A stretch of 64,000 nucleotides of DNA from Dehalococcoidia bacterium (GCA_030610655.1 JAUWRG010000001.1:175-64174); one strand, 5' to 3'. Positions 20,782 to 61,812 are shown, counted from the first letter of the stretch. Program-made: numbers and translations. The notes: generated from the sequence alone by a model not told the origin.

Positions 20782-20870
20782 GGAGAGGTGTCCGAGTGGT
20801 CTATGGTGCCGCTCTCGAAAAGCGGTGTCTCAAGTAATTGGGACCGTGGGTTCGAATCCCACCCTCTCCG
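20782..20870 (+). tRNA. tRNA-Ser (anticodon CGA)
   Basis: Acceptor GGAGAGG/CCTCTCC, anticodon loop CTCGAAA, long variable arm, T-loop GGTTCGAATCC. Folded manually. Confidence 0.8.
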
Positions 20871-20871
20871 C

Positions 20872-20957
20872 GGAGAGGTGCTGGAGTGGCCGATCAGGCG
20901 CGCCTGGAGAGCGCGTGTCGCCTTTGGCGACCGTGGGTTCGAATCCCACCCTCTCCG
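20872..20957 (+). tRNA. tRNA-Ser (anticodon GGA)
   Basis: Same acceptor and T-arm as the upstream tRNA; anticodon stem CGCGC/GCGCG with loop CTGGAGA; long variable arm. Confidence 0.75.
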
Positions 20958-21080
20958 CTTCTTTCGCCCGTTGAGCTCATCCTTAATGACTTCCCCTACT
21001 CTAGCAATGGTTTTTGCTTTCCATTGGCTATTATGCTATAATGAATTAAACCGCAAATAATTGAGAGGGAAACCTGAAGT

Positions 21081-28800: not shown

Positions 28801-28866
28801 AAGGCAAAACCTCATGAGCGCTTGCACACCATCAAATCATGAAAATTTGCTGGCTAGATACCGTTC

Positions 28867-28952
28867 GTGGTCCTTCTGCGGAAGGATGTCGAACCATGAA
28901 CGACCCTTCGACAGGCCTGTCCTGAGTTCATCGAAGGGATCAGGGCGAACGG
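28867..28952. repeat. intergenic repeat copy R3 (internal module only)
   Basis: TCCTTCTGCGGAAGGATGTCGAA...CAGGCCTGTCCTGAG...TCGAAGGGATCAGGGCGAACGG parallels the interior of the 51896-52008 element. Confidence 0.6.
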
Positions 28953-30736: not shown

Positions 30737-33361
30737 ATGGCCTTGCATAGCATACTAAAATCAAAAGTTGCTGAATGGGAAAAATCTAATTATACCTCAG
30801 ATTATCCCGTTATTTCTGAGATTTTCAATTACAATCAAAATCCTGAAACTCAGAACTTGCCCTACTTACGAAAAGCCCAGTTTGAAGCCCTTGAAACTTA
30901 CTGGTATTTAAGACTTGTGGAGAAAACCCCTCACATTTTTGAACTCCATAATAGATTGTATCCTAATCCTTTAGATTTTCTGAAAGTCCTCGGAATACCC
31001 ACCGAGAATCAGGAAATTTTAGGACTGGCTTTAACAGGTGGCACAGACAGGATAATTGACCAGATAAGGACAAATGATGAGTTTGTAAAGAGGCATGGAC
31101 TTGAGACTGTAAGGGAAACTTTGACCCTTGAATATCCCAGTTATATCCTAGCTTTGGCAATGGGAGCAGGTAAGACCATCTTGATCGGCACAATTATCGC
31201 TACTGAATTTGCAATGGCTCTTGAATATCCAGAGAATAACTTCGTCAAAAATGCCCTAGTATTTGCGCCGGGTAAGACAATATTAGGAGCATTAAAGGAG
31301 TTATCGGATGTTCCCTATGAAAAAATATTGCCTGAAAGGCTTTATAAGCAGTTCATAACTACCACAAAATTTACCTATACCCGCGATGGCGAAAAAGACA
31401 TCCCGATAATCAAAGGCTCAAGTTTTAATATCGTAGTAACCAATACCGAAAAGATTAGAATACAAAAACACTCAATAACCAAATCCCTAATTAGAGATTT
31501 ATTTGTTGACCCATCCCGGGAAGATGAGGTAAAGGAGGCGATAGCCAATCAGAGATTGCAAACAATTGCCTCGCTTCCAAATCTTGCTATCTTTTCTGAT
31601 GAAGCACACCATACCTATGGACTGGCACTCGGTGAAGAACTGAAGAGAGTGAGACAAACAGTTAATTATCTGTCAGAAAAGACAAATGTTTTAGTTGTGA
31701 TAAACACCACGGGAACCCCATATTATAAAAGGCAGATCCTTAAAGATGTTATTTATTGGTATGGGCTATCACAAGGAATAAAAGATGGAATATTGAAAGA
31801 AGTCCGGGGCAATATTGTATCTTATCCAGAAGTAACCGACAAAGATTTCCTAAAAGATATTATCGCCGATTTCTTCAAGAATTATAAAGATGTAAAAATC
31901 TATGACGGCAGTCCTTCTAAACTGGCAATATATTTCCCCAAAATAGAGGATTTAAAGAATGCCAAACCAGTTGTTGAGAAAAACTTAATAGAACTCGGTT
32001 TAGACCCTTCTGTTATTTTAGAAGTCCATAATGAGTCAAAACAAGAGGTTAAGGATTTATTTGATAACCGAATAAATGACCCTCACCTACCTTATCGCAT
32101 ATTTCTTCTTGTTAATAAAGGGACTGAGGGATGGAACTGCTTATCCCTCTTTTCTACTGCCTTAGCACGCAAACTGACAGCAAGTAATAACTTTTGCCTT
32201 CAAGCCACCTCCCGCTGCCTCAGGCAAACTCCCGGCAATATACACAAGGCAAAAATATACCTTTCCAAAGATAATGTCGGAATTTTAGACGCCCAACTTA
32301 AAGAGACCTATGGTGAAACTCTTGAAGATTTAAATAGAACTTCACAAGATATGAGAGAGGATAGACTAATTTTGAGGAAAGTAGAAATACCACCTGTTTT
32401 ACTCAAAAAGAAGATTCGAAAAGTTCTGCCTAAAGAAGTGCTGTCAGATATTAGTCAAATGGAGTTTAAGAAGATTGAAGGAGAAAAAGAGAAGTTTAGA
32501 AAGACTATCCATAGCCTTGATGACATTCCTCAGAGGAAGGGAGTCTTAATTTTTGTAAGAGAAGAGGAGATAGAAATTATTGAAGATTTCGTGGATAGTT
32601 ATACCTTTGCTGTGGAACTATCAAGCCTTTATCGCCTACCCCTTATGTTAATATACGACAAATTGAAGGAGTTGTATCCCGAAGGCGAGATTCCTGAAAG
32701 CGATGCCATTGAACTTAAAAGGCAAATAGAAGAGCAAGTGCGAAACTACGAAATAAAAGAGGAAGAGGTAGAATTTGCCCTTGCTCTCATAAGACCCGAG
32801 GGCTTCAATAAGGAGGAAAAAGACGGCAAGAGTATATATGTAACCGAGATAGTCTATCATAAAGACAAGGAGAAATACCTATTAAAGTGGGATGAGTTTA
32901 AAGATAAATTTAAGAGAGACTTCGGCTTCCACTATAATCCCTATAAATTCGATTCTTCTCCTGAGAAGGAATTTTTTACCTGGCTTCTTGAAAACTTGAA
33001 CGAAGACCCGGCAGATGTTGAAGACATCTATTATACCGGTGGTATGGATGACCCCAATAAGACAGACTTTCTCTTTGAATATAAGGCTAAAGATGGCAGG
33101 TATCATAACTATGCACCTGATTTCCTGATAAGAAGAAAAAGTGGGAAAATAATAATTGTGGAGGTAAAAGCAGAGCGCTTCAAAGATGAAGAGAAGGAAA
33201 AGGAGATGAGAAGGATTGAAGGGCTAAACCCTGATAGATTAAAGTATGAAATTGTAGAGACCAAAGGTGAACAGCTAGCTTTTGAGGGTTTAAATAAAGT
33301 TAGAGAAGCAATCTATGAGTATGGCAGTAAAGGGGTAAATAAGAATGCTTACTCAGTCTGA
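30737..33361 (+). CDS. Type III restriction Res-like SF2 helicase with a C-terminal PD-(D/E)xK nuclease motif
   Basis: Motif I AMGAGKT, motif II FSDEAHH, motif III NTTGTP, motif VI QATSRCLRQ, and C-terminal PDFLIRRK...IIIVEVKAE. AT-rich codon usage unlike the flanking genes. Confidence 0.7.
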   Translation: MALHSILKSKVAEWEKSNYTSDYPVISEIFNYNQNPETQNLPYLRKAQFEALETYWYLRLVEKTPHIFELHNRLYPNPLDFLKVLGIPTENQEILGLALTGGTDRIIDQIRTNDEFVKRHGLETVRETLTLEYPSYILALAMGAGKTILIGTIIATEFAMALEYPENNFVKNALVFAPGKTILGALKELSDVPYEKILPERLYKQFITTTKFTYTRDGEKDIPIIKGSSFNIVVTNTEKIRIQKHSITKSLIRDLFVDPSREDEVKEAIANQRLQTIASLPNLAIFSDEAHHTYGLALGEELKRVRQTVNYLSEKTNVLVVINTTGTPYYKRQILKDVIYWYGLSQGIKDGILKEVRGNIVSYPEVTDKDFLKDIIADFFKNYKDVKIYDGSPSKLAIYFPKIEDLKNAKPVVEKNLIELGLDPSVILEVHNESKQEVKDLFDNRINDPHLPYRIFLLVNKGTEGWNCLSLFSTALARKLTASNNFCLQATSRCLRQTPGNIHKAKIYLSKDNVGILDAQLKETYGETLEDLNRTSQDMREDRLILRKVEIPPVLLKKKIRKVLPKEVLSDISQMEFKKIEGEKEKFRKTIHSLDDIPQRKGVLIFVREEEIEIIEDFVDSYTFAVELSSLYRLPLMLIYDKLKELYPEGEIPESDAIELKRQIEEQVRNYEIKEEEVEFALALIRPEGFNKEEKDGKSIYVTEIVYHKDKEKYLLKWDEFKDKFKRDFGFHYNPYKFDSSPEKEFFTWLLENLNEDPADVEDIYYTGGMDDPNKTDFLFEYKAKDGRYHNYAPDFLIRRKSGKIIIVEVKAERFKDEEKEKEMRRIEGLNPDRLKYEIVETKGEQLAFEGLNKVREAIYEYGSKGVNKNAYSV

Positions 33362-33818
33362 GGCAGATGCTTTAATCGATATGCGAAAGAAACTCGCCAA
33401 AAAAGAAGTGTATAATTTCCCTCCGGCTGGCGAAATATTAACTATTCCTATTATCTCTGTGGACGAAAGGGAATCTTTCTTGATAGATATAAACAGAGGA
33501 AGCATCAGGCTTACCAAATGCACTTATCAGGAACGCTACCAGAGGATAATTACCCTCGTGCGTCTTGATATCGATGGACCTCCACATCCTAATCCAGAGG
33601 TGGTGAATATTCCATTTCCTCACCTTGAACCCTATAACGGACAGACGATACCTTGTCCCCATTTACACCTCTATGTGGAAGGATTTATGGATAAATGGGC
33701 AATTCCATCTCCGTCTGAGAAATTTCCAAGAACAACCGACCTCGTTGCAATTCTAGCCGATTTCTTCCGCTACTGTAACGTTGTTGAACTACCGGCAATA
33801 CAAAGGGGGATGTCTTGA
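33345..33818 (+). CDS. hypothetical protein (157 aa), translationally coupled inside the res-mod-like operon
   Basis: Overlaps the upstream stop by 17 bp and the downstream start by 4 bp. I recognise no motif. Confidence 0.5.
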   Translation: MLTQSEADALIDMRKKLAKKEVYNFPPAGEILTIPIISVDERESFLIDINRGSIRLTKCTYQERYQRIITLVRLDIDGPPHPNPEVVNIPFPHLEPYNGQTIPCPHLHLYVEGFMDKWAIPSPSEKFPRTTDLVAILADFFRYCNVVELPAIQRGMS

Positions 33819-34582
33819 TTTTAAAAGACTGTCAAGATTTGGTTAATGCTTATATTGAATGGCTTCAACAGAGAATTAACGTAGAAGATATAAAAGGAGT
33901 TTGTGAGATTACCACCCCCTTTGTTGATAGACACAATGACCAGCTACAGATATATGTCAAGCCTTCTAATAATAGGCTCATTCTTACAGATGATGGCTAT
34001 ACCATTAAAGACTTAAAAATAAGTGGATTTGAAATTACAACTGAAAAAAGACGACAAATACTCTATTCTATATTAAATGGTTTTGCTGTCCAACTTCATG
34101 GAGATGAGCTTACTGTGGAAGCAACGCCGGATAACTTTGCCCAAAAAAAGCATAATCTTATTCAGACTATGCTTGCGGTAAATGACCTTTGGACTATGAC
34201 TGAACCAATGGTAGCAAGCCTTTTTAGAGAAGATGTAGAAAGATACTTGCGCGAGCATAAAATCCGATTTACTCCCTCAATCAAGTTTGCTGGAAAGAGC
34301 GGTTTAGACCATTCTTTTGATTTTGTAATTCCGGCTTCGCCTGTAAAACCAGAAAGAATACTCAATGCCATTAGCAATCCGACACGGCAAAATATCTCCT
34401 TGCTAATCTTTTCTTGGACTGAGATAACAGAAGTGAGAGCACCCGATTCTACTGCCTATGGAGTTTTAAATGATACAGAGAAACAGGTAAGTCCTGATCT
34501 TATTGATGCACTCCAGCGGTATTATATTAGACCTATACAATGGAGCCGTAGAGCTGAGTATGTTGAGGAACTCGCATCATAA
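33815..34582 (+). CDS. hypothetical protein (255 aa) resembling DUF1828/DUF1829-type proteins
   Basis: The motif EITTPFVDRHNDQLQIYV...LILTDDGYTIKDL matches my recollection of the DUF1828 N-terminal signature. Not verified. Confidence 0.45.
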   Translation: MILKDCQDLVNAYIEWLQQRINVEDIKGVCEITTPFVDRHNDQLQIYVKPSNNRLILTDDGYTIKDLKISGFEITTEKRRQILYSILNGFAVQLHGDELTVEATPDNFAQKKHNLIQTMLAVNDLWTMTEPMVASLFREDVERYLREHKIRFTPSIKFAGKSGLDHSFDFVIPASPVKPERILNAISNPTRQNISLLIFSWTEITEVRAPDSTAYGVLNDTEKQVSPDLIDALQRYYIRPIQWSRRAEYVEELAS

Positions 34583-34593
34583 GGGATAAGGCT

Positions 34594-36603
34594 ATGGCTG
34601 AGAATAAAATCAAGATTACCCCCGCTAAAGGGCGACCAATGCTTCACTGGGTGGGCAAAAAGCCTTCGGATTATGTAAAAGGCTTCCCTACTCAACTTGT
34701 TGAAGTTTTTGACCCGTTGAATAATGGGCAGAGAATTGAAACGCCGACTTACGATGAACTAAAAGACAACTGGCAAAACTTACTCTTTCACGGTGATAAC
34801 AAAGATGTTTTAGCCACACTTCTTGAATTAGGATTTAGGGGAAAGATTGATTTAATTTATATTGACCCGCCATTTAAAAGCGGCGCTGATTATGTAAGAA
34901 AGATTGAACTGCGGGGATTAAAGAATTTAGGGCGAATAGAAGAAGATGAGGCGTCACTACTTCAGCAGACAATGTATTTTGATATTTGGAACAATGACAG
35001 CTATTTGCAGTTTATGTATCATAGATTGATACTTTTGAAGGAGTTATTAAGTGATGCAGGAAGCATTTGTCTGCATTGCGATTATAGACAAAATAGTTAT
35101 TTGAGATTGATAATGGATGAAATTTTTGGTGCGGATAATTTCAGAAATGAAATTATTGTGCGAAGAGGGGTCAAAAGCCTTCAAGCCCAGTTTGATATGA
35201 TCGATTCCTTATCCTCTGGTAATGACACTATCTTGGCGTATGTAAAAGATCCCAATACAAAGTTTAAAAAGTTAGAAATTGAACTTACAGAATCGCGGCA
35301 AGGGACTTGGAATAACCATTGGAGAGGCACTGATCGCCCTACGATGCGATATGAATTATTTGGGATAACACCAACACACGGCCAATGGCGATGGAGTAAA
35401 GAACGCTCAATGAACGCTATTGAGAATCATAAGGCATTTCTCAAGGTGGCAGACAAGTATTCAAGCATTGACGAGTATTATTTGGAGAAGAAAGCAGCCG
35501 GAATTGAACTAGATTTCTTGCGTCTTAACAATAAAGGGAAACCAGAACATTATGTGCCGACTACAGACATTAGACTTTCAAGTACGCTATGGACTGACAT
35601 CTCTGCATATGATAGTGGCTCTTCCTTTCAGACACAAAAAAGTGAGGAATTACTTGAAAGAATCATTGATTGGTTAACCAACCCCGGCGAACTCGTCCTT
35701 GACTGTTTCATCGGCTCGGGCACAACTGCTGCTGTTGCTCAGAAACTTGGCCGGCGATGGATTGGCTGCGATATAAACAAAGGGGCAATTCAGACGACAA
35801 GCAAGAGGTTACAAAAGGTAATTCTTGAACAGATAAAATCCCCCTCTAATCCCCCTTTATTAAAGGGGGAAGTAGGGGGATTTGCTGTTTACAAGGTCAA
35901 TGACTACGATTTGCAACTTTTAAGAACCGAGGCGATTGAACTTGCCGTCCAGCATATCGGTATTCAGAAGATAAGAACCGATGCATTCTTTGACGGATAC
36001 CTGGGGAAAAACCTAGTTAAAGTTATTGACTTCAACCATCCATTAACTCTTTTGGATTTACAACTTCTTCAAGACGAACTCAAGAAAAGACCAGATGAAG
36101 ATAGGGATATTACCATCGTCTGCCTTGGCAAAGAATTAGCCGTCGACCCCGAAATTGAAAAATGGAATAAAAAACACCCAGTAAATAAGATTAAAGTAAT
36201 TGAATTAAAAACAGATAAAAAATATGGCAGTTTCTTAATCCATAAACCAGCGGAGGCAAAGATAGAGATTCTTCCCCTTCACTTCGTTCAGGGTCAGAAT
36301 GACAGATTGGCAATAATAGAGATTCAAGATTTTATCTCACCTACCATAATTGAGCGGCTTAATATTGATAATACTCTTTTCAAAGTAAAAATCCCCGACT
36401 TTAGAAGTATGATAGACACAGTTTTGATTGACACAAATTACGATGGTAAAACCTTCCATATAGTTCATTCAGATGTTCCAAAGAGGAAAGATGACTTAGT
36501 CAAAGGAAAATATGAAATCGAGCTTCCAAAATCAAAAACAAAAGTCGCAGTAAAAATAATTGATATGCTTGGAGAAGAGATTATAAATGTTTTCGAGGTA
36601 TAA
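34594..36603 (+). CDS. beta-class N6-adenine/N4-cytosine DNA methyltransferase, Type III Mod-like
   Basis: Motif IV IDLIYIDPPFKSG precedes motif I VLDCFIGSGTTAAVA (beta circular order); N-terminal LLFHGDNKDVLATL; 669 aa. Confidence 0.8.
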   Translation: MAENKIKITPAKGRPMLHWVGKKPSDYVKGFPTQLVEVFDPLNNGQRIETPTYDELKDNWQNLLFHGDNKDVLATLLELGFRGKIDLIYIDPPFKSGADYVRKIELRGLKNLGRIEEDEASLLQQTMYFDIWNNDSYLQFMYHRLILLKELLSDAGSICLHCDYRQNSYLRLIMDEIFGADNFRNEIIVRRGVKSLQAQFDMIDSLSSGNDTILAYVKDPNTKFKKLEIELTESRQGTWNNHWRGTDRPTMRYELFGITPTHGQWRWSKERSMNAIENHKAFLKVADKYSSIDEYYLEKKAAGIELDFLRLNNKGKPEHYVPTTDIRLSSTLWTDISAYDSGSSFQTQKSEELLERIIDWLTNPGELVLDCFIGSGTTAAVAQKLGRRWIGCDINKGAIQTTSKRLQKVILEQIKSPSNPPLLKGEVGGFAVYKVNDYDLQLLRTEAIELAVQHIGIQKIRTDAFFDGYLGKNLVKVIDFNHPLTLLDLQLLQDELKKRPDEDRDITIVCLGKELAVDPEIEKWNKKHPVNKIKVIELKTDKKYGSFLIHKPAEAKIEILPLHFVQGQNDRLAIIEIQDFISPTIIERLNIDNTLFKVKIPDFRSMIDTVLIDTNYDGKTFHIVHSDVPKRKDDLVKGKYEIELPKSKTKVAVKIIDMLGEEIINVFEV

Positions 36604-48039: not shown

Positions 48040-48078
48040 CTTCCCCCCAGGAGATTATATCATGATAATCCTCATTTT

Positions 48079-48140
48079 GTCATTCTGAGCGAAGCGAAGG
48101 ATCTCGATACCCTTCGCTGCACCCAGGGTGACAATGAAGT
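48079..48140. repeat. intergenic repeat copy R4 (GTCATTCTGAGCGAAGCGAAGGATC-type)
   Basis: GTCATTCTGAGCGAAGCGAAGGATCTCGATACCCTTCGCTGC with internal GCGAAGG/CCTTCGC hairpin. Confidence 0.6.
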
Positions 48141-49702
48141 CACTTCTCAACCCATACGTCCTTAAGGGTGGGAATAATCATAGGGGCAGGGGAAAAACCC
48201 TCGACATAGGGCTTGACCAGGTAATAGCTCCTGCCAAACCAAAGAGGGAGCAAAGGGGCGTCCTGGACAATGGCCTGCTCTACCTCTTGGTACACCGCCA
48301 GCCTGCTATCGAAATCGCTTTCCACTCTTGCCTCCTCCAGCAACTGGTCTACATAGGGACTGCTATAGGCGGTATGATTCTCCACACTCTCGCTGTGAAA
48401 CAAGAGGTCGAGGAAATTCTCAGCATCGGGATAATCTGCAAGCCAGCCAATCTGAAAAGCTTGAAATCTCCCTTCCCACAGGTCATCCAGAAAGGTTTCC
48501 CATTCCACCACTTCGACCTCCACCTCCACCCCAAGATTCTCCTGCCACATCCAGGCTATCGCCTCAGTTGATGCAGCCGCCCCGACACAGCTTCCTGGCA
48601 CAGAAAGGACGATAGCTGGCAAGCTATCCTGGTAGCTTGACTCGGCAATGAGCTGTTGTGCTCTCACCACGTCGTAGTTCAGGCCCTCCATTCCCTCACT
48701 ATATCCAGGTATGCCAGGAGGAAGAATGCCATAAGCAACTGAAACCGTATCTTTTAGCAATATGTCGATGATCTCCTCCTTGTCCACAGCGTGACACATG
48801 GCCTGACGCACCTTCTCATCATCAAAGGGTGGCATGGCAGTGTTGAAGCCAATATAACCTAAGGAAAGCTCAGGAACTATGACCATCTCCTCATTCAGTG
48901 GATTCGTGGGGTCAAGCACCCTTTCAATGTTGGTAGTACCTACTTGAGTTATGTCAAGCTGCCCCTTTTCGTACATCATCATTGAGCCTCCGGTGAAGAG
49001 GAAGGTCACCATGTCTAACTTAGCGATGTCTCCATAAAAGTTGTCGTTCCGCTCAAGGACTAGCCTCTGCCCGCTCCACCATTCACGAAACTTGAAGGGG
49101 CCGGTTCCGCTGGGGAACCGCCACCAGTCAGCAGTGGGCTCAACATTCTCTTCGTCTACAACGAAGGCAGCAGGGTGAGTGAGCTTAGCCAGGAAGTAGG
49201 CTTTGGCCGCATCGATGGTGAGTTGCAGGGTCTTGTCATCGATCACCACCACCCCAGCAACCTCTTCAGCATCACCCCTCAGTTTCTCCTTAACGCCGAC
49301 AATGTCGCCGAGATAGGCCTCAGCCACCGGAGAGCCAGTATCAGGGTCAGCAGCTCGCTCTATAGAATATTTAAAATCATCCGCCGTCAACTCCTTGCCA
49401 TGATGGAATCTCACGCCATCGCGAAGGTGAAAGGTATAGGTAGTGCCATCGCCACTGATATCCCAACTCTGAGCAATGTCGGGGATCACCTCAAGGTCAC
49501 TGTTGAGGGTCACCAGGCCGCTAAATATTTCCACAATGTACCTTCCTGAGGTCGCATCAGCACAAAGGGCAGGATCCAAGGTTGAAGGCTCGGAGCCATA
49601 AAGGGCTAAACCCCCAGGTGGCACACCACAACTGAGCGCAGATAAAGATAAAACAAAGACCATTGCCACAAGGGCAATGGCAATCATCCTTCTAAGTACC
49701 AC
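48140..49702 (-). CDS. ABC transporter substrate-binding protein, family 5 (peptide/nickel, OppA/DppA-like)
   Basis: 520 aa with signal peptide and a family-5 SBP fold. Confidence 0.7.
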   Translation of the reverse strand: MVLRRMIAIALVAMVFVLSLSALSCGVPPGGLALYGSEPSTLDPALCADATSGRYIVEIFSGLVTLNSDLEVIPDIAQSWDISGDGTTYTFHLRDGVRFHHGKELTADDFKYSIERAADPDTGSPVAEAYLGDIVGVKEKLRGDAEEVAGVVVIDDKTLQLTIDAAKAYFLAKLTHPAAFVVDEENVEPTADWWRFPSGTGPFKFREWWSGQRLVLERNDNFYGDIAKLDMVTFLFTGGSMMMYEKGQLDITQVGTTNIERVLDPTNPLNEEMVIVPELSLGYIGFNTAMPPFDDEKVRQAMCHAVDKEEIIDILLKDTVSVAYGILPPGIPGYSEGMEGLNYDVVRAQQLIAESSYQDSLPAIVLSVPGSCVGAAASTEAIAWMWQENLGVEVEVEVVEWETFLDDLWEGRFQAFQIGWLADYPDAENFLDLLFHSESVENHTAYSSPYVDQLLEEARVESDFDSRLAVYQEVEQAIVQDAPLLPLWFGRSYYLVKPYVEGFSPAPMIIPTLKDVWVEK

Positions 49703-50269
49703 TTATTCACTCATTTTCATAGATAGATACGATTAGATTGGCTCTTCCTCTAAGCACAGTCAATTTTAGCCTAGGTAGCGATGGTTTAGCAAGCCACTGC
49801 TTCTCGTTGGTCTTGCTAAAATAGATGAGCGGCATCTTCGCCGTATTGAAAGGCACTCTTCTATAGGAGGGAACCTTGATGTAAAGCAAAAAGTGGACTC
49901 TAGGAAGTAACTTCTTTGACGGCATCCACTACTTGCTTCAATACATCTTTGAAGAGCCTGCCAGCTAGGTCTCCGGTCGTCTCTGGCTCTACTATTGAGC
50001 CTAGCCTTGGCACAATAAGCCAGGGTAATCTCCTTCGCCACAGTCAAAGCATCGTCTGCCATAATTTTTACCTCCCTTTGGCCATTATACGTATTATGAG
50101 GACAATAAGCTGGTAGACAGGCTGTCTAAAAACCTCATTCCGCGTAGCGTCGTGACTCCTGTCACGACGAAGAATTCGTCCTTCAGCAGAAGGACGCTAC
50201 CCTTTTGGGACGGCCTGTAGATATGATATTTGCTTGATTTAGGACTGAAATTGTGTAGTGACCACCAGC

Positions 50270-50503
50270 TTAAGCATAGACTTTTATATTGTGCTGCTCA
50301 AGAAGTTTAGCTATTTCTGACTCGTATGGCAAACCGGTTATGTCTACGCCGCTACCTACGTAAAGTAGTTCAACGCCTATAACAGTTCCATCTTCTGCAT
50401 AGTCAATAAATCTTGTTTCATCAAGCTCCTTAGAATATGAGTAAGGTAACTTATTAATGAGGATGTAAGCACAGTCAGCATCGCGGTCATACTGGAATTC
50501 CAT
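50270..50503 (-). CDS. DUF2283-family small protein (putative antitoxin-like partner)
   Basis: 77 aa; pairs with the upstream DUF4258-like gene. Confidence 0.5.
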   Translation of the reverse strand: MEFQYDRDADCAYILINKLPYSYSKELDETRFIDYAEDGTVIGVELLYVGSGVDITGLPYESEIAKLLEQHNIKVYA

Positions 50504-50518
50504 AGAGCCTCCTTTAGT

Positions 50519-50767
50519 TTAGTCGAGAACGATAGCCGTTATGATTCTTAATGGGCTGGTATTCTTACGAACGACTACTCTAAGTCTCTTTCCGTTTTTC
50601 AAGTAGCCGACAAAACAATCATTACCTTCTTTATCCTTGTACGCTATATCATAGGAATCAAGAACGTTTTCGACTTCTGCCCTTGTTATCGCACGTTGCT
50701 TCATTCGATTCCGAGCATGATGTTGAAATTTGTAAGCTTCCCCGCCCGGTGTCTCATACACTTTCAT
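50519..50767 (-). CDS. DUF4258-family small protein (putative toxin-like)
   Basis: 82 aa; basic N-terminus (HHARNRMKQRAITRAEVENVL). Confidence 0.5.
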   Translation of the reverse strand: MKVYETPGGEAYKFQHHARNRMKQRAITRAEVENVLDSYDIAYKDKEGNDCFVGYLKNGKRLRVVVRKNTSPLRIITAIVLD

Positions 50768-50932
50768 TTTCTACCCTCCCAGTAAGTTTTGTCAATTCCG
50801 CCAACTAACTGTTACCAGCTGGTTTTTGGTTCCTTTTAGTACGTTATGCTACATCTAACTAGAAGTCAAGCTCTTAACTGCTTGACAAAGCTGCCGCTGT
50901 TATGGTAATATATAGCATGGAGGAGGTGAACT

Positions 50933-51691
50933 ATGCTAAACCAGTCCGAAAAAAACAAGAAACGGGAGGTGTCGCGGTATTCCTATCCATATTATGATTT
51001 AGAAAGTGCCATTCAAGTTACTAAGATACTCTATGACCAGGCAGGTGGTAAAACCTCATTCGCACAATTAGCTTCCTACCTTGGGCATAAGGATGAATCC
51101 AGCGGAACGTTCATTGCTAAGATTTGGGCAGCTAAGTTATTGGGGCTTGTCCAAGTTCAGACTCAAACTGTATCCACCACAGAATTAGGCGAACGATTGA
51201 CAACACTTCAGCCCGGTTTACAGAGGGATAGGCGGCTTGCGGATGCCTTTCTGAATGTACCGCTGTTTCGCGAGGTCTATAAGAGATTTGAAAATTCAAC
51301 ACTCCCTTCAACACGAGAAGGACTTTTGAACGTTCTACAAAGTACTTTTGGTGTTCCTTCCAAACGTGCGCCAGTGGCTTTGAAGGTGTTGTTGGCTTCA
51401 GCGGAGCAAGCTAATTTTAAGCGCGCTGACCCCAATCGGCTGATTCACCCTGTGCCCGCGGGGTTGATGGAAAGAGAAGCTTTAGCGAAAGCTGAAGCTG
51501 AGCAAGAAGAACCAGTATCTAATGCTCCTCAGTTGGAAACACCACTGAGGAAGGTGCATCCAGCTATAAGTGGCTTTCTCCAAGAGCTCCCATCTAAGGG
51601 AGAGCGATGGACTACAAGCGACCAGCAGAGATGGCTCGATGCTTTTACCGCCATGATTAAGGCTCTTTACCCAAGTGAAGACAGCGATTAG
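50933..51691 (+). CDS. hypothetical protein
   Basis: 252-aa ORF preceded by a GGAGGAGG RBS; no recognised motif. Confidence 0.4.
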   Translation: MLNQSEKNKKREVSRYSYPYYDLESAIQVTKILYDQAGGKTSFAQLASYLGHKDESSGTFIAKIWAAKLLGLVQVQTQTVSTTELGERLTTLQPGLQRDRRLADAFLNVPLFREVYKRFENSTLPSTREGLLNVLQSTFGVPSKRAPVALKVLLASAEQANFKRADPNRLIHPVPAGLMEREALAKAEAEQEEPVSNAPQLETPLRKVHPAISGFLQELPSKGERWTTSDQQRWLDAFTAMIKALYPSEDSD

Positions 51692-51895
51692 ACAACGAAG
51701 ACTATGGATAAAGACGAAATTCTCGAAAGGGGGCTCTCCCTGAAGAGGGGCTGGGGACGCCCCCACGCCACCTATCATTGCGAGGATTGTCACGAGCGTA
51801 AGCGAGAGAACTCGCCCAAGCAATTAGAGACTTCCATTTGCCATTCCGACGAGGATTAGCGATCAAGTAAACTCGGATGGAAAGGGGAACCATGT

Positions 51896-52008
51896 GTCAT
51901 TCTGAAGGAGCAAAGCAAGGGAGGAATTTGGTTTAGATTCTTCCCCTTCACGGAGCCTGTCCTGTCCTTCTGCGGAAGGATATCGAAGGGTTCGGGGTCA
52001 GAATGACG
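51896..52008. repeat. terminal-inverted-repeat element R6 with perfect 10-bp inverted ends
   Basis: GTCATTCTGA...TCAGAATGAC with internal CCTTCTGCGGAAGG hairpin; 113 bp. Confidence 0.8.
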
Positions 52009-52127
52009 CTGCGAAGCAGGTATAATGGGGAGGAAGTGATGCATCATCAATCACATGAACGAGTACAGGGGAGCACACGATAATATAAGAGAGGCATACC
52101 TCGGAATTTGATGATTGCGCTAGCGGC

Positions 52128-52955
52128 TCATCCCCAATTTAGCGCCCTGATCGCTCCCGTACCAGAATCTATGGTGGTCTTCTTGCGCCACACGACCTCG
52201 TGTGGCAGATATTCCTCAAATGCCTTCCTCAGGATCCATTTCCCCCATACCTTACCCATTTCCCGTCTCACCTTATACTCAACAGGTACTTCCCAAGCGA
52301 ATTCGCTCACCTCCGAGGTGAGGTAAGGGGCGCTCAACTCCATACCCAATGCACCGGCCAACATGTAGGGGTATCTGAAATCATAAGCCTGAAACACCCT
52401 TGACGATAACTCCCGTTCCAGATCTCTGGCGAAGAGTTCTTCGCCACTAGAGGTGATAAGGTCGAAAAAACCGCTGATGGAGTCATAGCCGACAAATAGC
52501 TCATCAGCGCCGTCGCCGGTATATAGAGAACTCACAAATCTCCTAGCAAACATCATTGCAATATAGACTGGCGCAAGAGTAGTGGGGCCTGCCACCTCAC
52601 TATAGCCTTCGACTATGCTTTCCTTAATATGCATAGGGACGCCAGCCTCATATTCACTGTTGTTCAAGATGCTTGTCGCCTCCAGGGCCGCATCCACAAG
52701 CTCCTGTTCGGTGAAAAAGCGAACTGTGTGGTCCAATTCAAGGAATTGAGCCACCATCCTGGCATATTTGAGGTCTTCATCAACGCCTTCCATGGTTACG
52801 GTGAAGGCCTTCAGGCCGGGCACATGCTTTTTGGCAATCAAGGCGATAATGCTGGTATCCAGCCCCCCTGAGAGCAATACCCCTTCAGCTCTTTCATTGC
52901 TTATAGCTTCATCCAGTAGAACCCTCAGCCAGTAACTTGCCTCACCTATATCCAT
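52128..52955 (-). CDS. asparagine-synthetase-like PP-loop ATP pyrophosphatase domain protein (no glutaminase domain)
   Basis: SGGLDTS PP-loop and AsnB C-domain-like sequence; 275 aa. Confidence 0.6.
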   Translation of the reverse strand: MDIGEASYWLRVLLDEAISNERAEGVLLSGGLDTSIIALIAKKHVPGLKAFTVTMEGVDEDLKYARMVAQFLELDHTVRFFTEQELVDAALEATSILNNSEYEAGVPMHIKESIVEGYSEVAGPTTLAPVYIAMMFARRFVSSLYTGDGADELFVGYDSISGFFDLITSSGEELFARDLERELSSRVFQAYDFRYPYMLAGALGMELSAPYLTSEVSEFAWEVPVEYKVRREMGKVWGKWILRKAFEEYLPHEVVWRKKTTIDSGTGAIRALNWG

Positions 52956-53140
52956 AATAAATCACCAGTTAGCTACTTTGCCCAGGGCTTCTCTGTCTGT
53001 AGGACGGATATCTAGATTTTGCGCTATAAGTGCCGCGCCAGTATTACCTAGGGCGACGAAAACTTTCTCAACTTTGGGGCTTTGGGCCATCTTCTATACC
53101 AAGGTGTGTTCCCTGCCCCGTCCACCAATAACTAGTATCT

Positions 53141-54346
53141 TCACAGTTCACCTCTGTAATCCTTATTACTTAGGTTGTTTTTCTTCCGAAGCATTTCCCT
53201 TAACAAGTCCCGTGCCACCCTGTCTTCCATTTTTGTCTTGCTTAGAAGATCTTCTGACTCATGCTTTGGCAGCATCTCTGCTATAAATCTCATTAGTTCC
53301 ACTGAAGGGTAGAAATATTGCATTCCGTAGTGCACACAGCCCATATTAAGCTTAAGGAGCTTGAATATCTGCGCTACGAGTTTTCTTCGTTCGTTATCCG
53401 TTAGTATAGTTGTGTTGAGCCAAAACTCGCCGTTGTTGGTTACAACTTGAACGGAAAGCGGGTCAGGGAACCATAGGTGGAGATTCAAGTATAAGCGAAA
53501 AGGGAAATCATTAACCGCTTGGCACAATTCCCTCAATTCCTTAAGGAGATCATCGCTTTCCCCAGTACTCATATCGGGGAAATAAGGCGGGCGCATATGC
53601 CTCCCTTCATCTCTTCGTTTTTTAATTATCTCCTCGATTGTCTCCTTGGGGCACCCATCCAACTCCATTTGCTGCTTCGCCTCTTCCTCATCTTTAGCGA
53701 TATAAGTCTCAAGCTGGGTAATATCCCGCTCGAGGTTTTCATCGTATTTGTGAATTGCATTCACCTCTAATTGCCTTTCCGTTGCCTCCCCAACGTGTTT
53801 CTCAAGTATCCCGGCGTGTCCCCTTTTCACTCGTTCTTCTTCCTTTAGTCGCCTTTCCATTTCCACCTTTTGCAAGCCAAGTGTATGATCGTAAATCTTC
53901 TCAATCATCCTATCAGCAACCTCTACTGCCGATTCCCAATTTCCCGGTTTATATTTTTTGATTATCCTCCTCGTTTTTCCTGTCGACGAATCATAAATCC
54001 TAATAAAGGACAGTTTTGTTGTAAAGAATCCGCCTGTTTTTAAATTATATGTAGTTTTTCCACCTGTCATATCCTCTATCGTTTGGATGTGTATCCCCAA
54101 CTTATAAAAAGATATACCTCTAAAGGTATCCCCACTAACTGGTGAGACGATTTCTCGAATGCTAAAACTTTTACTAATCACTTTCCCGATCATACTTGCC
54201 GTTTCGTCTATGTTCACAACTTTGCCTAGCAACTCTCCTTTCAACCGCCTCTTGCCTAGACTCATATGCTTCCTCCTTTGAGCAAAAGTTTTAACCTCAA
54301 AATCACTTACATTTGCGAGTTCATTTCCTGTTTGGCCTTTAAGCAC
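53141..54346 (-). CDS. hypothetical protein (401 aa)
   Basis: Long ORF overlapping the upstream gene by 40 bp; charged coiled-coil middle region; no recognised motif. Confidence 0.4.
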   Translation of the reverse strand: MLKGQTGNELANVSDFEVKTFAQRRKHMSLGKRRLKGELLGKVVNIDETASMIGKVISKSFSIREIVSPVSGDTFRGISFYKLGIHIQTIEDMTGGKTTYNLKTGGFFTTKLSFIRIYDSSTGKTRRIIKKYKPGNWESAVEVADRMIEKIYDHTLGLQKVEMERRLKEEERVKRGHAGILEKHVGEATERQLEVNAIHKYDENLERDITQLETYIAKDEEEAKQQMELDGCPKETIEEIIKKRRDEGRHMRPPYFPDMSTGESDDLLKELRELCQAVNDFPFRLYLNLHLWFPDPLSVQVVTNNGEFWLNTTILTDNERRKLVAQIFKLLKLNMGCVHYGMQYFYPSVELMRFIAEMLPKHESEDLLSKTKMEDRVARDLLREMLRKKNNLSNKDYRGEL

Positions 54347-54867
54347 TCCCAGACACCTACGCTTATCCCATCAAGCCAGTAACTGATTCTTTCCACTAGC
54401 TCCTGGAGACTCTTAAAGTTGATATTGCGCAGCTCTGAAGCTGAAATCGAGGGTTTACCATTCTTGTCAACAGGATACCGAAAAGCGTATGAGTTAGGGT
54501 CCCATTCTGAAAATTTATTGATGTCCTCCTGCACAGCATCAAGGTCGGTTTCACGTTTATTACGTCCATCTTTCGACAGCCTTGCTAGCTCATCTTTGTC
54601 TATTTCTTCCAAGAGGCCTTTACAATCCCCCCACAGTTCACCTATTTTATGATGTTGCTGATATCGCAATAAACCTGGAGCTTTACCCAAAACCTGATTG
54701 CCATCTTGGATTATCTCTTTGATCCTTAATTCGATATACTGCCGATACAGAAATATTACTGGAAAGACGAGGGTATTTTGATCACCATGAGTAACGCAAT
54801 GTTCGACTAGTATGTCGCCAGCCAACTTATAACCTACTGCATATCGACCCCAGCTTAGATATCCCAA
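54307..54867 (-). CDS. hypothetical protein (186 aa), possible HEPN-like
   Basis: Contains an Rx4HH motif (LRYQQHHKIGELW); first gene of the overlapping pair. Weak evidence. Confidence 0.35.
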   Translation of the reverse strand: MGYLSWGRYAVGYKLAGDILVEHCVTHGDQNTLVFPVIFLYRQYIELRIKEIIQDGNQVLGKAPGLLRYQQHHKIGELWGDCKGLLEEIDKDELARLSKDGRNKRETDLDAVQEDINKFSEWDPNSYAFRYPVDKNGKPSISASELRNINFKSLQELVERISYWLDGISVGVWECLKAKQEMNSQM

Positions 54868-54876
54868 GGCTACTCC

Positions 54877-56637
54877 TCAATCAAGCCTCAACCTGAGATG
54901 AAGTTCCTTAAGCTGCTCGTCAGACACCTCGGCAGGGGCATCGAACATCTGGTCCACCGCGCTCTGGTTCTTAGGGAAGGGGATAACCTCCCTGATGGTC
55001 TCCGCCCCAGCGAGGATCATCACCAGCCTATCGATCCCAGGGGCGATGCCGCCATGGGGCGGAGCACCGTATTCGAAAGCCTCAAGAAGGTGTCCGAAAC
55101 GCTGCTCGATCTCCTCCTCTCCATATCCCAACAACCTGAGGATTTTCTCCTGAAGCTCCCTTGTATGGATCCTTATACTTCCGCTGGAAAGCTCGCAGCC
55201 ATTGCAGACAATATCATAGTGCCTGGCATGCACCCTTTCCGGCGCGCTATCCAGCAGGGGCACATCCTCATCCTTGGGCGCAGTAAATGGATGATGCATC
55301 GACTCCCATCCGCCACCTTCTCCCCTCTCGAATAGGGGATAATCGAGAACCCAGCAGAAGGCAAGGAGGCTGGGGTCTGCAAGGTCCAAGCGCCGCGCAA
55401 TCTCCCCACGCAACGCGCAAAGCGCCTCGGCAACAATGTTTGGTTCGCCAGCAACGATGAGCAGGAGGTCCCCCTCCTTTGCCTCGAACCGTTTTGCTAT
55501 CTCGTCAATCTGCCCCGTAGTCAGAAACTTGGCAGCCACGGACTTCCCCTGTTCTTCACCCAGTGGTAAGCTGACCAGCCCCTTTGCCCCACGAGCCTGG
55601 ACAAACTCAGCCAGCTCATTTATCTGGCGACGCGAGTAATTGCCGCAGCCCGGGGCACATATCCCCCTCACCCTACCCCCCGCATCTATAGCGGAGCGAA
55701 ACACAGCGAAATCGCACTCAGCCGCAATGTCCGCCAAATCCTTGATCTCAAGGCCGTAGCGCAGGTCGGGTTTGTCCGTGCCATAGCGCTCCATAGCCTC
55801 AGCGAATGATAGACGGGGGAAGGGCTTCAACACTCGCATGTTTGGCGTGACATTCTCCACCAGTGAGGTGAAAAGCTCCTCCATGAGTGTCAGGATATCT
55901 TCTTCTTCGACAAAGCTCATCTCCAGGTCGAGTTGAGTGAACTCAGGCTGCCGGTCGGCCCGCTGGTCCTCGTCGCGGAAGCACCTGGCAATCTGGTAAT
56001 ACCTGTCGAAGCCAGCCACCATTAATAGCTGCTTGAGCTGCTGTGGGGACTGCGGTAGGGCGTAGAACTTCCCAGGATGGACTCGGCTAGGCACCAGGTA
56101 GTCCCGCGCCCCCTCAGGGGTGCTCTTGATAAGGATCGGAGTCTCGATCTCGATAAAGCCTCTAGCCTCCAGGAAATCGCGCATGAACTTGATCACGCGA
56201 TGGCGCAGGATAATATTATCCCTCAGCTTCTCACGGCGCAGGTCAAGATAGCGATATTTGAAGCGAACGCTCTCTTCCACCTCAACGTCCTCATTCACAT
56301 TAAACGGCGGCGTCTTTGAGGCATTGAGTATCTCCACGCCCCGTGCAATCACCTCAACCTCCCCGGTGGCGAGCTTTGGATTCTCCGTTCCTGGGGGGCG
56401 CTTCCCCACATCACCGGAAACCTTCACCACGTACTCATTGCGCAACTTAGTTGCCACCTCATGCACCTGCGCCGATATCTCGGGATTGAAGACCACCTGC
56501 ACTAGGCCATCCCGGTCCCGCAGGTCGATGAAAACGAGCCCACCATGATCCCTCCGCCGATGCACCCAGCCAGCAAGGATCACCTGTTCACCGACGTTCT
56601 TGCTGGTTAACTGACCGCAATAATGAGTCCTAAACAT
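54877..56637 (-). CDS. aspS: aspartate--tRNA ligase
   Basis: Class II aaRS motifs and the N-terminal OB anticodon-binding domain ([36 protein letters not shown]). Confidence 0.95.
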
Positions 56638-56762
56638 TTATACAATCCTTACTGGATTATAGTTCATAGTAGGAGTGGAAAGCCAGAGGGCTGTTCCCTC
56701 AGGCGTTGGTCTGTCAGTGTCCTCCAGATATATACCCCAGGGCGGGCGGGTGGGACCAATGT

Positions 56763-56939
56763 GTCATTCCGAGTGAGCGCATCGACGAAGAATCTCCACC
56801 AGCGCGACCGACGCCTCAACCCCACCGAGATTCTTCGCGGAGCCTGCCCTGAGCGAAGTCGAAGGGGCTCAGAATGCCAAGGAGTGTCGCCTCCCTCGCA
56901 ATGATACCTAGAGAGGAGTCCAGAGGGGCCTCCCTCTGG
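56763..56939. repeat. composite repeat copy R7 (inverted-repeat-ended element + hairpin module)
   Basis: GTCATTCCGAGTGAGCGC...GATTCTTCGCGGAGCCTGCCCTGAGCGAAGTCGAAGGGGCTCAGAATGCC, then GAGGAGTCCAGAGGGGCCTCCCTCTGG at 56913-56939. Confidence 0.75.
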
Positions 56940-61389: not shown

Positions 61390-61628
61390 GAGGCTTGCCC
61401 CCAACGAAGCTGTCCATTCTGGTAAGAGCGTTCAATTAAACAGCCCTACTACGCCGAAGGCATCAGAGAGAGTCCAGAGGGATTTGCCCATTAACGGGGA
61501 TCTGGGGAATCGGCCAGAGGTACATTTCAGGGGGGATGGGCACATGTCATTCTGATGGACTCTGAGTGAAACGAAGGGTCTCGAAAAATCTCTCCACTCC
61601 CAGATTCTTCGCTGCGCTCAGAATGACA
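61390..61628. repeat. composite repeat copy R8 (degenerate palindrome module + hairpin module + inverted-repeat-ended element)
   Basis: GCTTGCCCCCAACGAAG...GAGCGTTCAATTAAACAGCCCTACTA (degenerate palindrome module with flank), GAGTCCAGAGGG at 61471-61482, GTCATTCTGA (61546) ... GATTCTTCGCTGCGCTCAGAATGAC (61628). Confidence 0.7.
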
Positions 61629-61812
61629 GGAAGGGCACGTGGGCGGGTCAAAACAATAGGGACGCTGCAACGCAGGTATCATGGAGGAATCTATCATGAC
61701 CAGTTCACTTTTCAACTGGAAATGGTTCACTTTTCAGGTTTAAACAGCTCACTTTTGAAGTTTAAATAACAATAAACCAGCACACTCTTGACAAAACAGC
61801 AAACATGATATA

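Follow-up and report, generated by a model that had tools for sequence, protein, structure and literature searches.

The DNA between aspS and the gene for a family-5 solute-binding protein (SBP5, the "oppA-like" gene) of an uncultured Dehalococcoidia bacterium raises the question of whether it arrived as one piece of accessory DNA, and of which of its genes, if any, belong to the lineage itself. A preliminary description of the 64,000-nucleotide stretch analysed here (the window) took this interval for a single, older accessory block of lower GC. Most of the interval is indeed accessory, and we consider it probable that it consists of two independent, compositionally foreign insertions, here called A and B, that flank a native AsnB-like gene in a gain-and-loss hotspot downstream of aspS. 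The features on which this reading rests are collected in Table 1.

Table 1. Features of the interval and of its native flanks, in window coordinates.
Feature	Coordinates	Strand	Remarks
SBP5 gene ("oppA-like"), family-5 solute-binding protein, native flank	48140..49702	-	Pfam SBP_bac_5 3.8e-88
Insertion B, 2.4-kb accessory block between AsnB-like gene and SBP5 gene	~49703..52123		relatives only 9-18 nt here
Decayed or uncertain small ORFs	49707..50062	-	gene start 50062 after GGGAGGT ribosome-binding site
Three-way hairpin ("double hairpin"), downstream of DUF2283 gene	50144..50200	-	-37 kcal/mol over 96 nt, z = -2.8
DUF2283 small protein, putative antitoxin partner	50270..50503	-	PF10049 9.2e-11, 42.2 bits vs cut-off 23
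DUF4258 protein, putative BECR-fold (RelE/ParE or colicin-like) RNase toxin	50519..50767	-	PF14076 2e-13, 50.8 bits vs cut-off 25
p252, 252 aa, divergent from toxin gene	50933..51691	+	GGAGGAGGTGA ribosome-binding site
MITE/REP-like element, internal hairpins	51894..52009		12-nt terminal inverted repeats GTGTCATTCTGA...TCAGAATGAC
AsnB-like gene: stand-alone asparagine-synthetase synthetase domain, PP-loop ATP pyrophosphatase, 275 aa, native	52128..52955	-	Pfam Asn_synthase 5.2e-37
Insertion A, 1.9-kb accessory block between aspS and AsnB-like gene	52956..54876		relatives 11-nt gap here
purD N-terminus pseudogene fragment (phosphoribosylamine-glycine ligase), internal stop codon	52965..53138	-	GARS_N 4.8e-14
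p374, fusion of two uncharacterised modules	53141..54265	-	N-module ~1-150, C-module ~168-360
p186, 186 aa, HEPN-fold protein of unnamed family	54307..54867	-	starts 9 nt past aspS stop codon
aspS, aspartyl-tRNA synthetase, native flank	54877..56637	-	Pfam tRNA-synt_2, GAD, anticodon-binding OB domain

Of 80 Dehalococcoidia loci aligned on aspS for the synteny comparison, most have aspS-tig-clpP without intervening genes. In the relatives whose AspS is 92-93% identical, a compact row is found instead, with gaps of 9-18 nt: aspS, a 275-aa AsnB synthetase-domain gene, SBP5, tig and clpP. Loci L096-L101 (AspS 92-93%) and L102 (81%) have the AsnB-like gene directly after aspS, followed by SBP5-tig-clpP, and the SBP5 gene is syntenic in L016, L017 and L019 as well. 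The comparison shows this tightly packed row to be the ancestral row of the clade. To judge by synteny, the AsnB-like gene is native, because relatives keep it within the compact row from aspS to clpP, and together with the SBP5 gene it is an older lineage-specific addition, because most Dehalococcoidia have aspS-tig-clpP directly. The epithet "older" suits these two genes; it is not shown for A and B, which are recent enough to vary between relatives whose AspS proteins are 92-94% identical. The interval downstream of aspS is an indel hotspot in one Dehalococcoidia lineage, since other relatives have lost the AsnB-like gene by deletion or have different genes there; in L016, L017 and L019, only about 100 nt of the 3′ end of the AsnB-like gene are still present. 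In uncultured Dehalococcoidia the packed housekeeping row from aspS to clpP can thus take up and lose DNA more than once.

The synteny check that had been proposed for the interval separates its parts: apart from the AsnB-like gene, the whole interval is absent from the relatives with 92-93% identical AspS. The homology breakpoints around insertion B lie at 52124 and, where nucleotide homology to the relatives ends on the SBP5 side, at ~49693. In the relatives, the SBP5 ribosome-binding site GGAGGTGA sits inside the 3′ end of the AsnB-like gene; here the first codons of SBP5 and its ribosome-binding site have been replaced by the end of insertion B. Composition draws the same borders. Against a background of 2-kb windows (mean GC 51.7%, sd 2.2, minimum 45.1%), insertion A at 43.1% is under every background window and insertion B stands at 45.4%, and the tetranucleotide distances of A (0.368) and B (0.326) reach or exceed the background maximum (0.325). 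The lower GC seen by eye, and the GC and k-mer check suggested for it, are thus borne out for the two blocks, but the low GC is not uniform across the interval, since the AsnB-like gene has 50.4%. In sum, A and B combine absence from the same site in close relatives with deviant composition, as genomic islands do, while the AsnB-like gene does not; a conserved location with normal composition, which the preliminary description had named as evidence against its reading, was found for the AsnB-like gene in L096-L103 and not for A or B.

We give almost no credence to the acquisition of 49703-54876 as a unit, AsnB-like gene included. All of its genes do lie between two housekeeping genes, and its mean GC is under the window mean, but in L096-L103 the AsnB-like gene keeps its place in a compact row with aspS and SBP5, its remnants persist in the three loci named above, and its GC and GC3 (56%) match those of its native neighbours. 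It is also very unlikely that the ancestor of the clade already had A and B and that the compact loci of the relatives result from deletion. Deletions do occur at this locus (the AsnB-like gene is lost in L016 and L017), and L008, with 94% AspS identity, also has p186 directly after aspS; against this account, the compact 9-18 nt junctions, with the SBP5 ribosome-binding site inside the end of the AsnB-like gene, recur in L096 and L099 (92-93%), the more distant L102 is also compact at the aspS junction, and A and B are compositionally foreign, with A holding a purD fragment that belongs elsewhere. Two separate insertions around a native gene thus remain the preferred reading, and its value for annotation is that the native gene is told apart from accessory DNA on both sides of it.

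As to how the insertions came about, both may have arrived by recombination rather than through a dedicated integrase. No integrase, transposase or tRNA gene lies in or beside the interval, and neither insertion has flanking direct repeats at its breakpoints. Rfam and ARAGORN found no RNA genes within the interval, and none of its six proteins, p186 included, matches any PADLOC defence-system model at E <= 0.1. We considered and rejected a phage or plasmid origin, as p252 matches nothing in IMG/VR, INPHARED (phages) or PLSDB (plasmids), the p186 family has one match in IMG/VR, and PHROG matches are negligible. The arrangement is not a misassembly, because it is found again, whole and with identical proteins, in eight metagenome contigs; soda-lake and related samples, such as ERZ23499000 and SRR14865926, contain the identical contig. 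It resembles the genomic islets of core-gene recombination hotspots, in which content of deviant composition varies between fixed flanks among close relatives, and it shares with them short inverted-repeat-ended elements and hairpin repeats of the MITE/REP kind; it differs from them in that neither an integrase or tRNA gene nor attachment-site repeats turned up. Taken as a whole, the locus is an ordinary case of a variable hotspot, from which two protein families of which little is known emerge as a by-product.

The AsnB-like gene was rightly described as a stand-alone C-domain with an SGGLDTS PP-loop. Its product matches Asn_synthase with 128.7 bits and aligns with residues 225-457 of Escherichia coli AsnB (chain 1ct9_A), SGGLD included, and it shares with the AsnB synthetase domain the GDGADELFVGY and APYL motifs as well. 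Unlike AsnB, it has no N-terminal class II (Ntn) glutaminase domain, starting about 20 residues ahead of the PP-loop, and its scores are far under the cut-offs of the full-length AsnB equivalogs (NF006949, 114.8 bits vs 499; TIGR01536, 108.7 vs 267). The 705 homologues are 275-280 aa long in Dehalococcoidia and about 320 aa in archaea, whose "asparagine synthase-related" proteins are its nearest relatives outside Dehalococcoidia. A further difference from AsnB is that the gene and aspS are coupled in operon-like fashion; an AsnB domain that lacks the glutaminase and is linked to aspS in this way might be relevant to asparagine synthesis in the lineage.

Insertion A brought the HEPN-fold p186, the two-module p374 and a defunct 5′ fragment of purD. 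The last matches Pfam GARS_N with 53 bits (cut-off 29.5) and was probably carried along from an earlier location of the cassette, and the source of the insertion may have been a site adjoining purine-synthesis genes; in L188, an N-module gene without p186 lies between purB and purC. The two complete genes had been described as an overlapping pair of 186 and 401 aa with no recognisable homology, and neither part of that description held. Gene callers, a strong AAAGGAGG ribosome-binding site and homologues beginning MSLGKRR... place the start of p374 at ATG 54265, so that the protein has 374 aa and the two genes are separated by a gap of 41 nt. Profile searches of the ORFs at 53141-54346 and 54307-54867 detect relatives for both. 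For p374, a word-indexed search returned only the protein itself, as if it were an ORFan, but an exhaustive HMMER search gave 35 relatives. Its C-module, of about 190 aa, is found elsewhere fused to zinc ribbons, membrane anchors and HEAT repeats; it is confidently modelled, yet nothing in PDB or BFVD matches it structurally, and its alignment is too divergent for a scan of viral contigs.

The fold of p186 is the four-helix up-and-down bundle of the HEPN superfamily, which includes HEPN-MNT toxins, Abi proteins and the HEPN domains of sacsin and Roquin. In HEPN RNases the last core helix begins with a catalytic motif, Rx4-6H. This motif is absent from the 78-member alignment of the p186 family, where an invariant R130 is followed by YP and by no His within 4-6 residues; at the position before the last helix, 39 of the 78 members have His and the protein in the window has Asn. 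It further differs from that superfamily in lacking an MNT partner, in its invariant polar residues (R42, E46, K50, H73, D123, S126, R130, Y131 and N150) and in the long loop of 30 residues (FRYPxDKxG) that precedes the last helix, and none of the Pfam HEPN models matches it above noise: p186 itself has no Pfam match, three of 11 relatives match PF05168 (best E 0.057), and a PDB profile search gave chance matches only. No conserved partner emerged for the family as a whole, since at 80 metagenomic loci the 113 neighbours fell into 89 clusters, mostly with housekeeping Pfam domains, and neighbours of the N- or C-module type are confined to the window, L008 and L107. p186 could be a conflict-type effector or a nucleotide- or RNA-binding protein that works largely alone, with p374 as a variable accessory partner.

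A more ambitious reading would make p186 and p374 an undescribed two-gene conflict module (toxin-antitoxin or phage defence), in which the effector has a HEPN fold and, in place of Rx4-6H, a non-canonical active site formed by R42, E46, K50, H73, R130 and Y131, and is controlled or targeted by a partner with swappable modules; we judge this unlikely. It is possible, though still somewhat unlikely, that the pair is no conflict or addiction module at all, p186 being a non-catalytic HEPN-like helical bundle (a nucleotide- or protein-binding adaptor, for example) and p374 an unrelated passenger that adjoins it by chance. Chance adjacency, however, is at odds with the closest p186 subfamily, whose members adjoin N-module proteins in three of four contexts (the window, L008 and L107). 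A passenger role also fits poorly with L105, where a MazE-type gene overlaps the start of the p186 homologue by 4 nt and is translationally coupled to it, and with a pair that is patchy, low in GC and faster-evolving than its flanks (in L008, 80% identity for p186 and 58% for the N-module, against 94% for AspS). A widespread, solitary HEPN-fold family without the RNase motif and a ~190-aa domain without a structural relative in the libraries searched are leads, which, like the AsnB domain, change current understanding only if activity is demonstrated.

Insertion B brought the DUF4258/DUF2283 pair, the divergent p252 gene, the hairpin and MITE-like repeats and decayed small ORFs, and replaced the translation start region of SBP5. 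The pair had been called toxin-antitoxin-like, which agrees with both profile matches, that of DUF4258 spanning positions 1-70 of the 71 in PF14076, and with two small, adjacent, co-oriented genes 15 nt apart, a layout that fits type II toxin-antitoxin genes. DUF4258 has been classed among the BECR toxins (PMC11980606; bioRxiv 10.64898/2026.08.28.747851), and we suggest that the pair acts as a type II toxin-antitoxin-like addiction module in which a BECR-fold RNase toxin would be neutralised by its small neighbour. Like known systems with BECR-fold toxins (PF14076, overlapping Ntox49), it joins a clear DUF4258 member to a small neighbour on the same strand, and it is low in GC (GC3 of the DUF2283 gene, 35%), patchily distributed and located within accessory DNA. 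It differs from them in gene order, the toxin preceding its partner here whereas the antitoxin comes first in the order given for the family, and in the partner itself, DUF2283 being outside the antitoxins named for the family, which include MqsA-type fusions (PMC11980606).

The 252-aa protein remains as uncharacterised as first described: no family scores over cut-off, the sole family match being a sub-threshold one to AAA_assoc_C (2.4e-4), and PDB sequences gave no match. Upstream of its gene, 50882-50911 resembles a promoter (10 of 12 matches plus TG) and is by eye the only convincing site in promoter and terminator scans whose counts were no higher than chance. Among the small ORFs next to SBP5, the gene starting at 50062 keeps a sensible frame for about 17 codons and then shifts, with a 37-aa continuation at 49900-50013; the 98-aa ORF 49766-50062 looks frameshifted and is unsupported as a gene. 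A 72-aa ORF lies at 49707-49925. None of these small ORFs has a Pfam or PHROG match or a relative among the fetched loci. We also rejected a 51-aa ORF (51704-51859), which coincides with repeat-like sequence and whose sole match, to DUF2197, is sub-threshold.

Both repeat structures noted by eye in insertion B are real. The "double hairpin" is a three-way hairpin in which two perfect 8-bp stems stand within an outer stem of 5-6 bp, and it may be a terminator or a REP-like element; one of its arms scored as terminator-like, the total of such sites being that of chance, and its hairpin TCCTTCNNNNGAAGGA occurs again at 51965 and 28871 (three copies vs 0.3 expected). The element with inverted-repeat ends has the terminal inverted repeats, here closing a stem, and the multiple copies that define MITEs, its terminal motif occurring seven times in the window (0.4 expected). 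It departs from MITE/REP-type repeats in that no target-site duplication is seen at its ends, and the window holds no transposase. Its other copies, all short and diverged, lie at 56752-56875, 61544-61629, ~48077 and ~36294.

The interval between aspS and the gene for a family-5 solute-binding protein (SBP5), which had been described as oppA-like, is an indel hotspot with two small accessory insertions, block A (52956-54876) and block B (49703-52123), on either side of a native gene for a stand-alone asparagine-synthetase domain (the AsnB-like gene). The variable region proposed in the preliminary description is genuine but ordinary, and it is not one islet. Misassembly of this arrangement is excluded because 8 metagenome contigs, drawn from several samples including a soda-lake assembly, encode identical proteins. 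The source is an uncultured member of the Dehalococcoidia (Dehalococcoidales). Among the species-representative genomes searched, the best AspS matches are Dehalococcoidia (Dehalococcoidales) MAGs at 92-93% identity.

Against a background of 2-kb windows with a mean GC of 51.7% (sd 2.2, minimum 45.1%), block A stands at 43.1% and block B at 45.4%, and their tetranucleotide distances of 0.368 and 0.326 compare with a background mean of 0.229 and maximum of 0.325. The lower GC seen by eye across the whole region thus holds for both blocks, but not for the AsnB-like gene between them, which has a GC of 50.4% and a GC3 (56%) like that of the SBP5 gene (57%) and tig (59%). The stretch between efp and xseA (30737-36603) is far more AT-rich, with a GC of 38.5%. 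Its genes specify a helicase of the ResIII type (874 aa), DUF6978 and DUF1828/DUF1829 proteins and a 669-aa N6/N4 DNA methylase, so that it resembles a type III-like restriction-modification island; presumably this is the first accessory block implied when the present interval was called the second.

The window proteins were mapped onto 80 aspS loci retrieved from Dehalococcoidia. In most of these aspS-tig-clpP is contiguous, while in one sub-clade the SBP5 gene lies between aspS and tig. In the relatives' loci L096-L101 (82-83% identity, with AspS at 92-93%) and L102 (75%, with AspS at 81%), a close AsnB-like homologue fills precisely the space from aspS to the SBP5 gene. These compact loci leave gaps of only 11-13 nt from aspS to the AsnB-like gene and 9-18 nt from there to the SBP5 gene, whose ribosome-binding site is provided by the AsnB-like stop region (AATTGGAGGTGA). 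In L016 and L017 (AspS 92-93%) the AsnB-like gene has been deleted except for roughly its last 100 nt, which still precede the SBP5 gene, and L019 (AspS 80%) carries a methyltransferase gene together with the same remnant. Because it is kept in L096-L102 and survives as remnants in the other three, the AsnB-like gene is native and ancestral to this clade, yet dispensable; its syntenic position and native-like GC remove it from the accessory block to which it had been assigned.

Features of the interval and its flanks, with the AsnB-like gene in relatives
Feature	Coordinates	Strand	Evidence
aspS	54877-56637	minus	
p186 gene	54307-54867	minus	
p374 gene	53141-54265	minus	
purD N-terminus pseudogene fragment	52965-53138	minus	GARS_N 4.8e-14, in-frame stop
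AsnB-like gene	52128-52955	minus	
p252 gene	50933-51691	plus	
DUF4258 gene	50519-50767	minus	Pfam, above curated cut-off
DUF2283 gene	50270-50503	minus	Pfam, above curated cut-off
Doubtful small ORFs	between DUF2283 and SBP5 genes		
SBP5 gene	48140-49702	minus	
AsnB-like gene in relatives	L096:8001-8828; L099:7332-8159; L102:8001-8840		

The protein itself was read correctly as a PP-loop ATPase: it matches Pfam Asn_synthase above the curated cut-off, has the PP-loop SGGLDTS, and shares with E. coli AsnB the synthetase domain (residues 225-457) but not the glutaminase domain. Such a glutaminase-less domain, coupled to aspS throughout a Dehalococcoidia sub-clade, may represent an ammonia-dependent asparagine route linked to aspS. 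Its homologues number 705; those of Dehalococcoidia are 275-280 aa long and the archaeal ones, which bear the name 'asparagine synthase-related', about 320 aa; the closest relatives outside Dehalococcoidia are archaeal (Asgard, Bathyarchaeia, Methanosuratincola).

By comparison with the compact loci, insertion A runs from the aspS stop codon to the AsnB-like start, and insertion B from just past the AsnB-like stop codon (52124) to the first SBP5 codons (~49693-49702); the latter cost the SBP5 gene its opening codons and its native ribosome-binding site. The site used in relatives (GGAGGTGA, within the AsnB-like gene end) is absent in the window. At the candidate replacement starts, GTG 49702 and ATG 49687, the ribosome-binding sites are weak or poorly spaced, and expression of this transporter component may therefore be altered. 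Gene calls and tRNA and repeat scans found no integrase, transposase, tRNA gene or terminal direct repeats for either insertion; two directly abutting tRNA-Ser genes (anticodons CGA and GGA, 20782-20958) lie far away and are not the insertion site. The locus varies even between close relatives, with six distinct states seen at AspS identities of 79-94%. Both blocks would be tolerated in a formerly operon-like row, with read-through and new ribosome-binding sites probably keeping downstream genes expressed.

Block A encodes two proteins, p186 and p374 (named by length in aa), which had been taken for an overlapping pair of 186 and 401 aa without recognisable homology; neither point survived. 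The start of p374 is ATG 54265, with the ribosome-binding site AAAGGAGG, chosen by gene callers and matched by homologues that begin MSLGKRR there, which rules out GTG 54346 and leaves a 374-aa product and a 41-nt gap. For p186, a word-indexed search returned 10 relatives and a metagenome scan 271, while p374, an ORFan by word-indexed search, gained 35 from exhaustive phmmer against 1.84 billion representatives.

The fold of p186 is HEPN-like, and across 78 family members R42, E46, K50, H73, D123, S126, R130, Y131 and N150 are invariant polar residues. Although it shares this fold with the RNase HEPN families, membership is not supported: their Rx4-6H motif was not found in the 78-member alignment, and no curated HEPN model matched above noise in Pfam (relatives included) or a PDB profile search. 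It would work on its own, as an effector or binder with a HEPN fold. Tandem family genes occur in some metagenomic contigs (L119:415-1038 and 1058-1678; L122:43-669 and 695-1327).

As resolved by its relatives, p374 consists of an N-module (~1-150) and a C-module (~168-360). In the L008 partner and the homologues P0152 and P0164 the N-module is joined to TPR-like regions; in the L107 neighbour it follows membrane helices, and P0149 and P0150 combine it with membrane helices as well as the C-module. The C-module belongs to a family of stand-alone proteins of ~190 aa with motifs YD..L..DI, FPFR and YPS/T, and fusions of it with zinc ribbons, membrane segments, DUF805 or HEAT repeats also occur. 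The window, L008 and L107 each have an N-module protein next to p186 or its homologue, but L188 does not: there an N-module and TPR protein, followed by one with a staphylococcal-nuclease domain and an unknown one of 198 aa, is encoded between purB and purC (L188:468-2889). L008 (AspS 94%) has p186 at 80% identity and the N-module at 58%, with the C-terminus replaced; p374 is thus perhaps a lineage-specific, module-swapping partner of p186. A dead piece of the purD N-terminus lies in the 185 nt that separate p374 from the AsnB-like gene, and together with the location in L188 it suggests that the cassette may have been copied by recombination out of a purine-gene neighbourhood.

Do the two genes serve in conflict? 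The context of the closest p186 subfamily hints at it: in L105 the start of the homologue shares 4 nt with a MazE-type gene, and in L107 HicB-like and DUF2283 genes stand beside it. Across 80 metagenomic loci, the family has no fixed partner and chiefly housekeeping neighbours, and it is nearly absent from viral contigs (a single IMG/VR match). A non-conflict role for p186 and p374 is quite possible, though not the likelier case, and it is improbable that they form a two-gene conflict module of a new kind. We regard the HEPN-fold family, which is uncharacterised, and the two-module p374 as modest leads, not discoveries.

In block B the DUF4258/DUF2283 pair was recognised correctly, with the DUF2283 gene 15 nt after its partner. 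DUF4258 has been placed among the RelE/ParE BECR-fold toxins of type II toxin-antitoxin modules (PMC11980606) and in a colicin-like branch overlapping Ntox49 (bioRxiv 10.64898/2026.08.28.747851). The pair is most likely a putative toxin-antitoxin-like module of a known type, which would act in addiction or stress. The gene for p252, a 252-aa protein, has its own ribosome-binding site and a promoter-like site that is convincing by eye; searches of Pfam, NCBIfam, PHROG, PDB sequences, IMG/VR, INPHARED and PLSDB gave no informative homologue. At 49707-50062 a gene that begins behind a good ribosome-binding site loses its sensible frame by a shift after ~17 codons, and a 72-aa ORF follows; neither has relatives in Pfam, PHROG or the fetched loci, and both look decayed.

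Folding bears out the double hairpin, as two perfect 8-bp hairpins within a short outer stem at 50144-50200 (-37 kcal/mol, z = -2.8), and the inverted-repeat-ended element likewise stands, at 51894-52009 with 12-nt inverted ends whose motif is present in 7 copies in the window, where 0.4 would be expected. Since the hairpin TCCTTCNNNNGAAGGA of the former recurs inside the latter and at 28871, both belong to one loose REP/MITE-like family scattered over the genome. Diverged short copies, sharing the ends TGTCATTCYGA...TCAGAATGAC and/or the hairpin GTCCTTCTGCGGAAGGA, lie at 56752-56875, 61544-61629, 48077-48130, 28860-28950 and around 36294; L008 also has a copy upstream of aspS.
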